Virus record (IMG/VR): IMGVR_UViG_2541047441_000020
DNA: 5,741 nucleotides
From: a virus
Lineage: Duplodnaviria; Heunggongvirae; Uroviricota; Caudoviricetes
Strand: one strand, 5' to 3'
Below are positions 1,000-5,741 of this stretch, piece after piece (the first letter of the stretch is position 1; the number at the start of each line of letters is the position of its first letter). The position numbers were made by a program, and so were the translations under genes. Under the pieces are notes generated by a model, which ran no database searches, had not been told where the DNA came from, and was given only the letters and a program-made list of their open reading frames with translations.

Positions 1000-2450
1000 T
1001 TAGTTCATTGACATGATAGTTACCTGCCTTCAATTTCCTAAGCAAGCGATGTAAACGATAATCAATATCAAATGTATTGACAGGTAAAATAATAACGATG
1101 TACCTTTGCTGATAACATATATCAGTCTTAAATCATAATGGAGGTAGATAAAATAACTAAACACACACAACAAATTTTTTATCAGTGACATAGCATATCT
1201 TAAGCATCCTTTAATGCTCATGGGGAGAACGCATGACTAAACATATGGACATTCATTGTCAAACACGCATATTTAACTCAATTAACCATGACACCAAATA
1301 TAAAATATGTATTTTTACTCCAAAAAACATTAAAAAAAATAATGCAACTCTTTATATACTTGATGGGAATAGTGCCAACAATTACATTTCTGATATTCTG
1401 CCTGTTATTGATGCACTACCCAATCCACCAGTGTTAGTTACACTTGGTTATGAATCTTGGAATAACCTTAGCATTCATCGCCGTGCTTACGATTATACTC
1501 CTGATGGTGAAAATGCTATTGTTGATAACTCTAAACCAGCATGGATCTACTTTACTGGTGGAGGAAGCCAGTCTTTCCGAGAATTATTACTAACTCAGAT
1601 CATGCCATGGGTTAGTACTATTGCTCCGAACAGTTCCAGAATCGGTATATGGGGACACTCGCTAGGTGCTATTTTTGTGCTTGATTGCTTAAAAAATAAT
1701 TCATGCTTTAACTATTATTATATATCTGCACCATCACTTCTATGGCAGAATGAAAGAATCATCAAGATAATTAAAGATGATATATCAGAATCAAAGCACA
1801 CTAAAAGTATATGCTTGCTTAACGGAAATCTTAGCCTTGATTACTCCGCATCTTTATATCCTGAAGCCATCAAAGCGGAATCTGTTTTGAGAAATATTTT
1901 GACAGAAAAATACAGTAATTTTTCTATTGTACAATTTCCAGAGCTCAATCATCAGGAGACTTTCTCTGCTGCACTCTGGAATAGCATTATTCATTTCAGC
2001 ATATAACAGAAAATATGTAATCACTTTATCAATCTAGCTAACATAACTGATATCAATCCTAATGGGTCTTTGAACATATTAAAAGATAACTTCTCATTTG
2101 TACATTGTTGTGTTCTTAGACCCATTTCAAAAATACTATTTTTTAGATACTAATAATTACATCCATTTAGCTATCTTCTAAATACTCCTCTCAGTTTCTT
2201 CATTGGAGCTGATTCAACTCCGGCAATGCATACTAGGATCATTTTATAAGCATACAAACAACATCCAGACTGTGAATTATTGCTATTCATTTTCTATGTA
2301 TCTGCTCTTTTCCCATCCACTGAAACACCAGAATCCAAAGGTTTCATGTTATTTTCACTATTCCATCATTACTCCTGTGTAAAATATCAAAACTCGCTGC
2401 ATCACTTCACTGTTACGGCACTCACTACAAATTATGTTCAATTGCCTGTC
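1000..2450. other. Low-GC islet (about 30-35% GC against about 50-55% flanking), probable horizontally acquired cargo; boundaries approximate
   Basis: Abrupt compositional shift judged by eye; the right boundary falls within the last ~30 codons of the 2358-2771 gene. No transposase, integrase or clear target-site duplication is visible. Confidence 0.6.
1233..2006 (+). CDS. Alpha/beta-hydrolase of the putative-esterase family (Fes/IroD/IroE siderophore-esterase-like), 257 aa, no signal peptide
   Basis: ATG at 1233 preceded by GGGGAGA; TAA at 2004-2006. GHSLG nucleophile elbow (Ser143), YILDGN (Asp44), RRAYDYTP (Arg84) and a C-terminal His240 in PELNH. Spacings Asp-Arg of 40 and Arg-Ser of 59 match what I recall for IroE (Asp90/Arg130/Ser189/His287); this is memory, not a search. 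The gene is very AT-rich. Confidence 0.75.
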   Translation: MTKHMDIHCQTRIFNSINHDTKYKICIFTPKNIKKNNATLYILDGNSANNYISDILPVIDALPNPPVLVTLGYESWNNLSIHRRAYDYTPDGENAIVDNSKPAWIYFTGGGSQSFRELLLTQIMPWVSTIAPNSSRIGIWGHSLGAIFVLDCLKNNSCFNYYYISAPSLLWQNERIIKIIKDDISESKHTKSICLLNGNLSLDYSASLYPEAIKAESVLRNILTEKYSNFSIVQFPELNHQETFSAALWNSIIHFSI

Positions 2451-2771
2451 ATAGCGGCGTATTTCTCCGTCTGGTAATGACCAGATAAGGTCAGGATCAA
2501 CCACAACCGGTTTCTTCAGTTTTGCCCTCGATAGTTTTTTGCGGGCGTTTTGCCAGTCCTTACGAGCCTGTTCAGATGGGAATAACCCGTAACCAGAGTT
2601 GTATACATCGCCACTGGCAACCAGCTCTCTGGCAAGAACGCTCATCAGATATCTTGTCGCACCTGTCTTGGCTTCCAGTTGCCGTAACGTCTCGCGCCCA
2701 CTCCGGCGTACTAGCTCAACAACCTGCCCTTTAATTTTTTCCCGCTCTTCCTGTGTAAATACTTTTGCCAT
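2358..2771 (-). CDS. Hypothetical prophage protein, 137 aa, with a winged-helix-like motif; function unknown
   Basis: The ORF track starts at TTG 2786, but ATG at 2771-2769 has GGAGG 5 nt upstream, immediately after the stop of the preceding gene (2789-2787). Motif LEAKTGATRYLMSVLARELVASGDVYNSGYGLF recurs in the neighbouring gene. The C-terminal ~28 codons lie in lower-GC DNA. Confidence 0.7.
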   Translation of the reverse strand: MAKVFTQEEREKIKGQVVELVRRSGRETLRQLEAKTGATRYLMSVLARELVASGDVYNSGYGLFPSEQARKDWQNARKKLSRAKLKKPVVVDPDLIWSLPDGEIRRYDRQLNIICSECRNSEVMQRVLIFYTGVMME

Positions 2772-2786
2772 AAGCGCCTCCGGCAA

Positions 2787-3455
2787 TCACTTTTCCGATA
2801 CAACACGGCGGGAAGAATCAGTAATCTGTCGAACAATATCCCGGTGCTTGTTCAGCTCCCGCAGCGCGGCGCAGACTCGCTCCCACTTCTGAACATCACT
2901 TTTCGCCCTGCGCAGCGCCAGGTTTGCCCTGCGAAGGGACGGAAAAATCAGCTCATCTGCTTGCGTTTCGGTAAACGATGGCAACGGCTGCACAATGTCC
3001 GCCACAGTTTCTGTTTTAATTTCTTCCTGTGTTGCGGCTTCCCGGACTGGTAACGCAGCACCTGCTGGCTGAGGAAAGGCCTTACCATCATTTTTCGTTA
3101 CCGGCGCGGCTTTCGGATCTGCTGGTAAATTACCCCCCGACATGCAGTAACGAAATTTACCGTTCTGATTAACGCGTGCCAGCCGCCCCGTTGCGGTTAC
3201 CACCGCCAGCGTGGAAGCAACCTTGCGAGTACTGACGCCGAACTTACCCGCCAGTTCCTCACACGTTTTAGCACCATCCTGACCGATAAACTCAACCATC
3301 ATGTCTGCGGTAACTTTTGGAGCGACCTCTTCGGTTACCACATCCGGCGCTTCAGGTTGTAGTGCCTGCCCTTCGGTTACCCCGGCTTCACCTTCGACAG
3401 CCAGAAACCAGGTGTGACCCGTTTTATCAACAACGCCATTTTTTTGAGTTCCCAC
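2787..3455 (-). CDS. Hypothetical prophage protein with winged-helix-like repeats; this ORF is probably the downstream part of a gene frameshifted at an A7 run
   Basis: 222-codon ORF whose frame opens only 3 codons upstream of its GTG start (3455), with no ribosome-binding site. The first in-frame ATG (codon 52) also lacks one. Contains [57 protein letters not shown]. Confidence 0.7.
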
Positions 3456-3556
3456 AGTTCGTTAAGAACTTCTTCACGGCTGATATCAAGCCGCGCCGCC
3501 AGTTCAACAGAATTGGCTTTTCCCATCGCTTTCAGTGCATGCAATACAGTTTCCAT
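3377..3556 (-). CDS. N-terminal segment (first 36-38 codons) of the same gene, in the -1 frame relative to 2787-3455; authentic start of the frameshifted gene
   Basis: ATG at 3556-3554 with GAGGT 9 nt upstream, directly after the DnaC-like stop (3584-3582). Encodes [39 protein letters not shown] up to the A7 tract (plus-strand T7 at 3439-3445), then stops at TAA 3379-3377. Confidence 0.45.
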
Positions 3557-3581
3557 CGAAAATTTACCTCGTCAAAAATTC

Positions 3582-4322
3582 TCACATACCCTGACGTCCA
3601 ACGTTTGACCGCCAGCTCTCCCAGTTAAAATTCACCCAACGACCACCATTCATGGTCATACGGTCCATCACCCGATCTCCGAGGAGTGTGCTCATCGCTG
3701 CGTGATTCAGGTTCGTCAGCATTCCGACACTACGCATCGAAGCCGTTCTGCGGTCGACTATCTGGTTCAGCGTGACCTGCTCGTTGCGCGTATCCCGCTG
3801 CATGCCAATTTCATCAAGGACCAGAAGGTCAACTCCACAAAGCTCCTGTAAAAATTTTTCCCCGGACTGGCCGTTGTCGTAGCCGTCATGCAACACGCTC
3901 ATGACATCGGACACGGTGACGATAATCACGCTTCTCCCCTTCGCCATCAGCCGATTGCCAATCGCTGCTGCCAGGTGATTTTTACCGGTACCAGGTTTAC
4001 CGCTGAACACGAAGTTTGTACATCCGGTCATCAATTCATCGGCAATGGATTTCGCCTGGCTCAGAGCATGGCGCTGACCGTCGTTCTGCACCCGGTAGTT
4101 CCCGAATGAGCACTTCCTGTGAAGCGGCTGGATGCCCGCACGGTTCAGGATTTTTTCAACCCGCACCTGATGATTCAGGCGGTTAATCTCCTCGCTGCGT
4201 TTTCGTCCTTCAGCAAGTTGCCATTCCCGCCACTCCTCCACCGTCCGGTACGGTGGAACCGCCCCCTGTGGTGCAAGTCTGCGAATACGTTCAAGAACCC
4301 CAACTGCCGCAATGTTTTTCAT
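3582..4322 (-). CDS. DnaC-like replicative helicase loader (AAA+ ATPase), 246 aa, prophage replication protein
   Basis: Walker A SGKPGTGKNHLAAAIG and Walker B LLVLDEIG; near-colinear with remembered E. coli DnaC (IINQIVDRR, GMLTNLN, GDRVMDRM, WVNFNWESWR). ATG at 4322 follows the O-like stop by 6 nt. Matches the ydaV position in Rac-type prophages. Confidence 0.9.
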   Translation of the reverse strand: MKNIAAVGVLERIRRLAPQGAVPPYRTVEEWREWQLAEGRKRSEEINRLNHQVRVEKILNRAGIQPLHRKCSFGNYRVQNDGQRHALSQAKSIADELMTGCTNFVFSGKPGTGKNHLAAAIGNRLMAKGRSVIIVTVSDVMSVLHDGYDNGQSGEKFLQELCGVDLLVLDEIGMQRDTRNEQVTLNQIVDRRTASMRSVGMLTNLNHAAMSTLLGDRVMDRMTMNGGRWVNFNWESWRSNVGRQGM

Positions 4323-4328
4323 GACACG

Positions 4329-5291
4329 TCACCCCCTGAATCCCGGCGGTATTTCAGTGTCCGGTTCAGAAATGTGATTCACGCAACGCTGCGCGGGCGA
4401 ACGCCCCAGGCGGATAACCAGTTCATCCCATTTTTCCCGGAGTTTTGCCGGACTCATGATGTTTTTTACCCAGAACGAATCCCGCTGGAGACGCCCAAAC
4501 ATTTCACAAATTTGTCTGTGAGTTCTGCCATCCAGCATCCGCATTGTCCGCACGTCATTGGCCCATGCAGTCCAGTTGGGTTCTTTCGGTCTCGTGATCT
4601 CGCCATCATCGCTGGCCGCCTGCTCGTAAAGACTCACGATTCGTCCCCAGATCCACTGTGCGCACACCAAATCTTCCTGACTTCCCCACTGGCGTTTTTT
4701 CGCACTGAACACAACCGCGTCAGGGTGTCGGGTTAAAAAATTCTGTTCAGCCGTCTGCGGGTCCGGTTGCGAAGCGTCCGGACAAGAAGATCTTTTATCT
4801 GACGGATCAGGTTTTAATACTGACGGATCGGGGTCAATCATCGCCCCCCTAATCGGCAGTTTGTTATCAACAGTTGATCCATCAAAATTTGACGGGTCAA
4901 CCGTTGAGGGGGCAATATTTGACGGGTCAACTGTTAACGGGTCATTTTTTGCCGGGCTAATTTTTCTTTTCGGTTTATATGACTCACGCGCCGCCGCAGC
5001 AGCTGCTTCGAGTTTTTCCACATTAAGCCGATAGATATTGCTTACATTACGCCCACCGACCTTACGCTCTTCCTTCGTCAGCCAGCCCTCTTTCGCCAGT
5101 TCTGCAATAGCCGATTTCACTGTGGATTCACTTCTTGCACCGATCTGACGCCGGATAGTTTCAATGGCAGGCCATGACACGCCCTCGTCATTGCTGTAGT
5201 CTGCAAGACGGGCCATAACCGCCACCCTGGATAAGATCATGCCGGTGAAGGCGCACCCTTCCCAGACAAGACCATGAAGCTTGCTGCTCAT
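4329..5291 (-). CDS. Phage replication initiator (lambda O-like): N-terminal helix-turn-helix domain, low-complexity linker encoded by iterons, C-terminal domain
   Basis: The ORF track starts at GTG 5306, but ATG at 5291-5289 with GGGGG upstream is the better start. N-terminus (ARLADYSNDEGVSWPAIETIRRQIGARSESTVKSAIAELAKEGWLTKEER...NVSNIYRLN) resembles initiator HTH domains. The linker repeats TVDPSN. It sits directly upstream of the DnaC-like gene. Confidence 0.8.
   Translation of the reverse strand: MSSKLHGLVWEGCAFTGMILSRVAVMARLADYSNDEGVSWPAIETIRRQIGARSESTVKSAIAELAKEGWLTKEERKVGGRNVSNIYRLNVEKLEAAAAAARESYKPKRKISPAKNDPLTVDPSNIAPSTVDPSNFDGSTVDNKLPIRGAMIDPDPSVLKPDPSDKRSSCPDASQPDPQTAEQNFLTRHPDAVVFSAKKRQWGSQEDLVCAQWIWGRIVSLYEQAASDDGEITRPKEPNWTAWANDVRTMRMLDGRTHRQICEMFGRLQRDSFWVKNIMSPAKLREKWDELVIRLGRSPAQRCVNHISEPDTEIPPGFRG
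4799..4944. repeat. Iteron cluster (putative prophage replication origin) inside the O-like gene, flanked by an AT-rich stretch at 4945-4980
   Basis: ctgacggatcagg (4799-4811) and ctgacggatcggg (4820-4832) are 21 bp apart. An exact 13-bp direct repeat tttgacgggtcaa occurs at 4888-4900 and 4918-4930 (30-bp period), with a partial third copy at 4862-4877. Each unit is dyad-symmetric (TTGAC-GG-GTCAA; TCAAC-N-GTTGA). Followed by ttttttgccgggctaatttttcttttcggtttatat. Confidence 0.55.
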
Positions 5292-5313
5292 AAAACCCCC
5301 GAACACCGTGCTT

Positions 5314-5739
5314 TTAGTGCATCACCACAGCATTCCCTGCCGGGCCGCCGCGATTCATCTGGTCATACAAAACAACCGCTGACGCAACAAAATCATCGAC
5401 ATCCTTCACCAGCCGATCCCTCCGTTCGACGATCTCACGGTAATATTCAGAACTGTGGCTGCGCATACGGGCCACCAGCAAAGGCGGCATCGCCTTTTCG
5501 ATCGCCGGTAACAGAGCCTGCATTTTTTCAACAGCATCAGGGGTGTCTTTATCCAGCCAACGGAAAATTTTCTGGGTATTACGGGCCAGGGCTTCCGGAT
5601 GGCTGTCGTCATACAGTTCCGGGAACGTCATTCCCAGCTCGAAATACGCTTTGGTAATTTTCGCAGCCGGTACTTTTTCGCCGTCCGGATGCGCCCAGAC
5701 ATTCATCGCCATGCGGATGTGTTCATGCTTGATTTTCAT
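5314..5739 (-). CDS. YdaT-like prophage protein, 141 aa, function uncertain; its start is 3 nt from the window edge
   Basis: ATG at 5739-5737, TAA at 5316-5314, 22 nt upstream of the O-like start. Its position (unknown gene, then O-like, then DnaC-like) matches ydaT-ydaU-ydaV of Rac-type prophages. The MKIKHEHI N-terminus is consistent with my recollection of YdaT, which is unverified. Confidence 0.7.
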   Translation of the reverse strand: MKIKHEHIRMAMNVWAHPDGEKVPAAKITKAYFELGMTFPELYDDSHPEALARNTQKIFRWLDKDTPDAVEKMQALLPAIEKAMPPLLVARMRSHSSEYYREIVERRDRLVKDVDDFVASAVVLYDQMNRGGPAGNAVVMH

Positions 5740-5741
5740 GA

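Follow-up and report, generated by a model that had tools for sequence, protein, structure and literature searches.

The textbook case of a replication origin within an initiator gene is that of bacteriophage lambda. It lies inside gene O, with the origin elements in the linker-coding middle of the initiator gene, and the C-terminal domain of lambda O contacts the helicase-delivery protein P. Here we consider a 5,741-nucleotide stretch of DNA, called below the window, from a virus of the class Caudoviricetes (IMG/VR record IMGVR_UViG_2541047441_000020). Comparison with its relatives indicates that positions 4784-4952 are quite probably a lambda-style replication origin of a lambdoid prophage, situated likewise inside the linker-coding part of its own initiator gene. 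The original prediction, made from the letters of the DNA, had proposed an iteron-type origin in an O-like initiator gene, and this held in all comparative tests run: the match to PHROG 391, the homology of the C-terminal domain, the DnaC-like neighbour, the constraint on the DNA and the co-variation with the N-terminal domain (N-domain).

The lambda record (NC_001416) annotates four iterons at codons ~117-144 and an AT-rich tract at codons ~145-158; the iterons are 18 bp long and 20-24 bp apart from start to start. Lambda-type variants in Stx phages have six iterons, and the number varies among relatives, adding residues to the protein (PMC7466680). According to a statement quoted in that paper, the lambda iterons nearest the AT-rich tract are needed in vitro. 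A second described group, the DopC/O-like proteins, combines HTH_36 with a DnaT C-terminal motif; DopC is a domesticated chromosomal gene, and lambda O itself was placed in HTH_36 by HHpred (Brezellec et al. 2017, PMC5509034). The window initiator resembles DopC in having both an HTH_36 N-domain and a DnaT C-terminal motif. However, the authors found no iteron-like sequences for DopC (PMC5509034), whereas in the window family the putative iteron array is present and conserved. The parts of the locus are as follows.

4329..5291, minus strand: O-like initiator gene, 320 amino acids, ATG at 5291
5007..5291, minus strand: N-terminal winged-helix/HTH_36-type DNA-binding domain, about residues 1-95 (Pfam HTH_36)
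4945..4980, no strand assigned: upstream AT-rich block, encoding the basic patch KPKRKISPAKN, just upstream of the array in gene orientation
4867..4952, no strand assigned: proposed iteron array, six 15-bp units with plus-strand starts at 4867, 4882, 4897, 4912, 4927 and 4942
4834..4844, no strand assigned: decayed seventh unit, nearest the GATC boxes, GCGATGATTGA on the gene strand; a perfect dyad, GGGGTCAATGGTTGACCCC, in relatives from other genera
4784..4832, no strand assigned: GATC-box element, two GATCCGTCAG boxes (plus strand, 4799-4808 and 4820-4829) around an A/T-rich spacer, then ATAAAAGATCT in gene orientation
4392..4835, minus strand: C-terminal domain, homologue of the lambda O C-domain (BLASTP)
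4332..4394, minus strand: DnaT-like C-terminal tail, 21 amino acids, VNHISEPDTEIPPGFRG (phmmer against PDB)

In the window, as in lambda, an N-domain, dyad-symmetric repeats, an AT-rich element and a C-domain follow one another, the C-domains are homologous, and a helicase-delivery gene lies directly downstream. Variation of iteron number between relatives is also common to the lambda/Stx phages and the window family. The two systems differ in several parts. The window has 6-7 units of 15 bp with dyads of 9-11 bp, and its AT-rich element is shorter and less AT-rich than that of lambda and is framed by two conserved GATC boxes. The partner gene is DnaC-like instead of P, the initiator has a DnaT-like tail that distinguishes it from lambda O, and its N-domain has no sequence similarity to lambda O that a shallow profile comparison could detect.

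The match of the initiator to PHROG 391, "replication initiation O-like", covers the whole protein (E 7e-115). The open reading frame (ORF) starts mechanically at an in-frame GTG at 5306, upstream of the ATG, which gives 325 amino acids; the homologues begin with MSSKL or MSTKL. Pfam HTH_36 was found at residues 30-76 of the 325-residue ORF (E 2.2e-6, 27.8 bits with a cut-off of 25), and a profile of 7 homologues weakly matched MarR/GntR/FadR winged-helix regulators over the same stretch. This domain is the presumed reader of the repeats. Residues 158-305 are 34% identical to residues 145-277 of lambda O over 148 aligned positions (BLASTP, E 2e-25); the initiator had no match to Pfam Phage_rep_O. 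When the N-domain profile (7 sequences, shallow, Neff 1.6) was compared with residues 1-118 of lambda O by hhalign, the probability was 0.1%. A single-sequence AlphaFold2 model of the initiator was unusable, with a mean pLDDT (predicted local distance difference test score) of 36.9, and we found no solved structure of lambda O. The tail VNHISEPDTEIPPGFRG matches the extreme C-terminus of DnaT (PDB 2ru8_A, 6aep_A and 9zbt_D) by phmmer, over the last 21 residues only and with E values of 0.01-0.03, and it occurs also in relatives of the initiator. The identical 963-nt coding sequence in O157:H7 is labelled "helix-turn-helix domain-containing protein" by RefSeq, and genome records call the gene only that or "primosomal protein", with the origin left unannotated.

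The repeats lie between the HTH_36 N-domain and the C-domain, so the proposal that they code for the linker (the TVDPSN repeats) proved right; the peptide encoded is DPLTV DPSNI APSTV DPSNF DGSTV. The direct repeats of 30-bp period were recovered by Tandem Repeats Finder (TRF; 2.3 copies, 79% match, 4867-4935), and the underlying unit is 15 bp (5.2 copies, 4867-4944, consensus TCAACAGTTGACGGG). Each unit consists of an 11-bp dyad of the TCAA-N3-TTGA type and a 4-bp G/C spacer. Two flavours of the unit alternate, TCAAC-N-GTTGA and TCAAAT-N-TTGA (dyad examples TCAAC-N-GTTGA and TCAAA-N-TTTGA), and hence the period of 30 bp. Allowing at most 1 mismatch, TCAANNNTTGA is matched five times at exact 15-bp steps (4867, 4882, 4897, 4912 and 4927); the sixth and weaker unit, 4942-4952, was recognised by inspection. 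The number of TCAANNNTTGA matches in the whole window is not significant alone (7 against 3.9 expected). Among 3000 first-order Markov simulations of the window, not one had at least 4 such sites within 75 bp, and likewise not one had a 15-bp chain of at least 3. The significance of the array rests on the phased clustering of its sites.

Two of the seven units are altered in the window. The proximal unit, which is a perfect 19-bp palindrome in relatives from Erwinia, Mixta and Edwardsiella, is decayed, and the same decayed form was seen in four aligned close relatives (three E. coli-type IMG/VR loci and one complete E. coli genome). The third unit in gene order (4912-4922) has TTGC where the majority has TTGA. 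Degradation of these two units (4834-4844 and 4912-4922) may mean that the origin is decaying in a lineage of cryptic prophages. On the plus strand, 4861-5034 forms an antisense ORF whose 57 amino acids nearly mirror the linker peptide (STVDPSKFDGSTV...); it results from the palindromes of the array and is hardly likely to be a gene.

Three sets of relatives were compared: six phage homologues, including SfII, phiNP, YeP1, phiP27 and Kp4866-6; 80 genomic loci from different species across Enterobacterales; and 80 viral contigs with an N-domain identical to that of the window. A stretch with a period of 5 residues, or 15 bp, directly follows the N-domain in every full-length homologue. With the relaxed core CA-N5-TG, an in-phase array was present in 80 of 80 homologous genes, with a median of 5 units and 6 in the window. 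The density of TCA-N5-TGA sites in 81 non-identical homologues is 13.6 per kb for the linker and 0.54 per kb for the remainder of the gene, and nearly all the sites are in one reading phase with a spacing of 15 or 30 bp. A check on iteron number among related prophages had been proposed, and the number does vary, from 4 to 10 units, with clean deletions of 15, 30 and 21 bp among close relatives. Among the 80 contigs with identical N-domains the array is almost fixed: one locus lacks a single 15-bp unit and another lacks a 21-bp box-plus-spacer unit. The array of one complete E. coli genome is shorter by 30 bp.

Could the dyads act as hairpins in mRNA or single-stranded DNA, for translational pausing between the domains or as a primosome assembly site? 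The 201-nt strand does fold better than all 200 of 200 shuffles (z = -3.5), and the initiator carries a DnaT-like tail. However, any palindrome array folds well automatically, the stems are only 4-5 bp each, and it is the specific sequence (CAA...TTG or CAGAATCTG) that is conserved, not merely the pairing. We regard this explanation as extremely unlikely.

If the array is kept in all homologues, at which level is it kept, as a peptide or as DNA? The stretch is rich in Pro, Ser, Asp and Gly and lies between two domains, a 5-residue periodic peptide is found in every homologue, and in-frame insertions and deletions of unit size occur. All this would suit a low-complexity pentapeptide linker made by slippage and selected, if at all, as protein, with the symmetry of the DNA as a by-product. 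However, the peptide is variable and the DNA is constant. The unit peptides differ by unit and lineage (SKSD, SKFD, SKIE, SEFE, SNYD, STVD, SNID, PTVE, LTVD, PMID) while the dyad nucleotides remain the same. At the first position of the unit Ser, Pro and Leu interchange as TCA, CCA and TTA; at the third position Ile, Val and Phe interchange (xTT), where the codon is xTT or xCT without exception and GAx comes next.

The choice among synonymous codons is position-specific and strongly biased. Of the Ser codons in the array zone 50% are TCA and 35% TCT; outside it the same genes have 21% and 12% (Fisher 5e-54; since the homologues are related by descent, this P-value and the other codon statistics overstate independence). 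Phe before Asp or Glu is TTT in 77 of 84 cases in the array zone and in 15 of 31 elsewhere; all 20 Ile codons of the zone are ATT, compared with 46 of 101. The DPS motifs end in TCA in 213 of 220 cases; TCA accounts for 11% of N-domain Ser codons. Where the amino acid equals that of the window, the codon is identical at 78% of linker positions compared with 39% in the N-domain. The N-domains of the homologues share only 54-77% of their residues, and their synonymous sites appear close to saturation; conservation across genera at this distance cannot be put down to recent duplication. The possibility, raised with the original prediction, that the repeats are constrained only at the protein level does not agree with this codon bias and with a variable peptide over a constant dyad; the constraint is on the DNA. 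A purely peptide-level repeat appears excluded by the codon data, and we give a slippage-made linker next to no probability.

The second group of elements lies at the other end of the linker. The original prediction had noted two 13-mers 21 bp apart, and they are present, CTGACGGATCAGG at 4799-4811 and CTGACGGATCGGG at 4820-4832, identical at 12 of 13 positions. It had counted them in the iteron cluster; they are probably not further iterons and more likely belong to an unwinding-side element, because the conserved AT patch with the GATC boxes lies there, opposite the lambda AT-rich tract. Only 0.23 occurrences of the GATCCGTCAG core would be expected in the window, which has exactly two (as many are reached in 7 of 200 shuffles), and three GATC sites, at 4789, 4805 and 4826, fall within 41 bp. 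The least stable 40-mer of the initiator gene is 4784-4823 (-46.9 kcal/mol). Across 76 homologues the AT content rises consistently in one place only, by +17 to +22 points relative to the gene mean, at and just after the second GATC box. In the alignment this element stands opposite the AT-rich tract of lambda (O codons ~145-158), and the 15-bp array opposite the lambda iterons. We propose that 4784-4832 is the unwinding-side element and the positional counterpart of the lambda AT-rich tract.

Within the GATC boxes, 149 of 156 DPS motifs have GAT as their Asp codon, which keeps the GATC, while 87 of 91 DPS motifs in the array have GAC. Most relatives have the boxes 24 bp apart; the distance is 21 bp in the window, and some relatives have 18 bp. 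In 75 of the 80 homologues there is an intact dyad whose end lies exactly 5 bp ahead of the first GATC (GATCC) box; the window is among three that lack such a dyad. The sequence GATCCGTCA was considered as a DnaA box and rejected by inspection, as it does not fit TTATCCACA.

The AT-rich stretch of about 35 bp on the other side of the array, from which an order of elements reverse to that of lambda had been deduced, fared less well. It exists in the window, with a GC content of 0.35 for 4940-4979, but it is not exceptional: its 40-mer stability is -48.7 kcal/mol against a gene mean of -56.5, and three other 40-mers of the initiator gene are about as unstable. Nor is it AT-rich in most relatives. 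Its AT fraction in five relatives that belong to the same subtype but to other genera is 0.39-0.47 against gene means of 0.41-0.49 (rows L008-L014 only; the window, L001 and L007 were mis-anchored by spurious early motif matches), and the family average is only +5 to +7 points. In those relatives the stretch encodes a Lys/Arg-rich patch and is not a conserved AT tract. It is at the GATC boxes, downstream of the array, that the family conserves an AT patch, so the alignment argues for the lambda order (N-domain, iterons, AT-rich element, C-domain) and not its reverse.

GATC sites are familiar from other origins. The oriII of V. cholerae has iterons and a high density of GATC (PMC2865523), and the P1 origin requires methylated DNA (Abeles and Austin 1987, as cited in PMC2865523). 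In oriC, P1 oriR and V. cholerae oriII, as in the window, a conserved GATC lies in or beside an A+T-rich element next to initiator-binding repeats, which in the window are putative. The window differs from them in having only 2-3 GATC sites, and a role of methylation is here no more than a lead. It is possible, though rather doubtful, that the GATC-box pair is a methylation-sensitive unwinding element tying origin firing to the Dam/SeqA state as in oriC and P1 oriR. If this is true, the Dam/SeqA link, a 15-bp array on alternating faces and a DnaT-like tail would together make an initiation complex unlike the lambda O-some. In several relatives (SfII, phiNP, YeP1 and 733R5) a DNA adenine methylase is encoded directly after the initiator.

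It remains to trace the repeats across initiators with different N-domains. Two subtypes of the N-domain differ in the dyad core: the subtype of the window has CAA-N3-TTG, and the SfII-like majority has CARAATCTG (palindrome CAGA-A-TCTG). N-domains at or below about 38% identity (Min27, ZF40 and a Vibrio phage) carry unrelated repeats at the equivalent site.

L169, 1736-1801: repeats of Min27 O, GGGGTGGGGCAGGAGCTGCCC three times
L171, 1723-1832: repeats of ZF40 gp14, a 44-mer twice
L172, 1823-1876: repeats of the Vibrio phage protein, GGTCAAATTCCGACC three times
L173, about 2010-2120, minus strand: repeats of HannyBb O, GGTCAAAATG five times at 21-25 bp, then an AT-rich tract, then shared C-domain sequence

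In HannyBb an unrelated N-domain is joined to the C-domain of the window, with 86% nucleotide identity up to window position 4798; this initiator can be regarded as a natural domain swap. The finding of unrelated repeats with unrelated N-domains, HannyBb included, indicates that the repeats travel with the N-domain and not with the C-domain, as expected of iterons and their reader.

The same comparison raises another explanation, namely that the conserved DNA is no functional site and is only the boundary of the N- and C-domain modules, kept alike by mosaic phages that frequently undergo homologous recombination. Nucleotide similarity to phages whose N-domains differ breaks off at the border of the GATC-box element (query 470, window 4798), the sequence CCGGA.GCTTCGCAACCGGACCCGCAG just downstream is common to HannyBb and the window, and C-domains are swapped among relatives. 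Such recombination leaves unexplained the phased dyads, their co-variation with the N-domain, the fixed 5-bp gap between dyad and box, and the opposite choice of Asp codons, and we consider it very unlikely as the whole explanation. The two ideas are also not exclusive, as the lambda origin itself is at a module junction.

Plasmid iterons act also in control, and the array lies inside a transcribed gene. The repeats might then be sites at which the initiator or another protein binds for regulation (autorepression, a transcription roadblock or copy control), with the origin elsewhere in the prophage, the more so as the scan covered only the 5.7-kb window. Within that window TRF reported no further repeat cluster. 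Moreover, the position of the array corresponds to the lambda ori, an AT-rich element of low stability adjoins it, and the layout of N-domain, repeats, AT-rich element and C-domain recurs with unrelated repeat sequences. A regulatory array is therefore unlikely in our view, and both it and the hairpin idea fit the positional match to the lambda ori less well than an origin does.

Under the origin interpretation, dimers of the N-terminal winged-helix domain would occupy the 15-bp units of the array, with the 9-11-bp dyads CAA-N3-TTG as their sites. The nucleoprotein complex on the array would strain and open the adjacent GATC-box/A+T-rich element at 4784-4832, and the lambda-O-like C-domain and the DnaT-like tail would recruit host DnaB helicase via the phage DnaC-like loader. 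With a period of 15 bp, adjacent sites point to nearly opposite sides of the helix, and the super-period of 30 bp is about three turns. Iterons are understood as at least three direct, evenly spaced copies beside an unwinding element, and the window has six units at exact 15-bp spacing. An origin of the lambda kind further implies repeats within the initiator gene between its domains, an AT-rich tract on the C-domain side, constraint on the DNA and co-variation with the N-domain, and each of these was found.

The genes around the initiator are the following.

Right half of the window, minus strand: early-right module of a lambdoid prophage, with all its genes on this strand
5739-5314, minus strand: YdaT-like gene, the upstream neighbour of the initiator
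3582..4322, minus strand: DnaC-like helicase loader gene (DnaC/IstB-like ATPase), directly 3' of the initiator
Further members of the minus-strand module: DUF1627 and DUF977 genes

The loader gene has matches to Pfam IstB_IS21 (E 1.5e-19), NCBIfam PRK12377 (500 bits), a DnaC model (E 1.8e-92, under its cut-off) and PHROG 50, "DnaC-like helicase loader". The order of initiator and DnaC-like gene mirrors the host dnaT-dnaC operon. The tail and this gene order hint at the route of helicase recruitment, and at a common ancestry of dnaT-dnaC with such phage modules. Many relatives (SfII, phiNP, YeP1 and 733R5) have no loader gene after the initiator, yet they keep a similar C-terminal tail, which suggests that these relatives use host DnaC.

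The Rac prophage of E. coli K-12 (oriJ region, L167) has a comparable set in ydaS-ydaT-ydaU-ydaV: YdaS-like, YdaT-like, initiator and DnaC-like loader, as in the window. An identity of the window origin with oriJ/YdaU was considered and rejected, since Rac YdaU is DUF1376, a different initiator family. Rac thus shares the gene order but has an unrelated initiator, so the frame of YdaS/YdaT and DnaC-like genes seems to accept different initiator cassettes.

The repeat region is present in 1519 of 5426 complete E. coli genomes, O157:H7 among them, where it is 100% identical to that of the window; the initiator family is found also in prophages of many Enterobacterales genera. The O157:H7 copy of the module adjoins a toxin-antitoxin pair of the RelB/ParE type. 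The element that carries it looks like a cryptic prophage of the CP-933P type; an "o gene homologue" of such a prophage is mentioned in PMC8630535.

Several other features of the window were recorded. The DUF1627 gene is broken by a 1-nt homopolymer deletion at 3439 into ORFs 3556-3377 and 3455-2787; the run is T7 in the window and T8 in the O157:H7 reference, with 99.7% identity otherwise, and the split gene is either a pseudogene or a sequencing error. The GC content of the module is 0.52 (2358-5741). An island at 1020-2350 has 33% GC against 52% for the replication module and contains an ORF for an alpha/beta-hydrolase or esterase-like protein (1233-2006, plus strand), against the orientation of the phage genes; this island looks like inserted cargo (a moron). 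At the left end of the window, on the minus strand at 473-685 and 9-353, lie a Hok/Gef-family toxin gene and a BOF gene (YgiW-like OB-fold with signal peptide). A scan of 4300-5741 gave no promoters or terminators.

Some points weigh against an origin here, besides the relatedness of the homologues that inflates the codon statistics. Plasmid iterons are roughly 22 bp, and the period of 15 bp is unlike both this spacing and the 20-24 bp of lambda, so the architecture of the complex would be uncertain. Binding by the initiator and firing of the origin are argued from conservation and co-variation. The N-domain showed no detectable similarity to that of lambda O, in a profile comparison that was shallow. 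The AT-rich element is short, with only about 60-65% A+T. Recombination at the module boundary could explain part of the DNA conservation at 4770-4832. Finally, the window shares its decayed proximal unit with the four close relatives, and another of its units has TTGC for TTGA; as the lambda iterons next to the AT-rich tract are those reported, in the statement quoted above, as needed in vitro, the copy in the window may be a weakened origin, and its host element resembles a cryptic CP-933P-type prophage.

In the literature searched we found no description of an origin or iterons for this initiator family, and no relevant matches to oriJ or to the repeat sequences; the matches to sequence strings were unrelated primers. 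The design is the textbook design of lambda, and what appears new is its presence in this common initiator family. The textbook is extended and nothing in it is overturned. The initiators of Min27, ZF40, the Vibrio phage and HannyBb form a ready-made series of putative initiator/iteron pairs, and swapped pairs of N-domain and iterons on one C-domain would be useful for studying initiator specificity. An origin with a likely iteron consensus would aid the annotation of prophage replication modules. Its placement would help to judge which cryptic prophages still replicate and to design phage-derived replicons, and would guide the choice of sites for prophage induction experiments in pathogenic E. 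coli.

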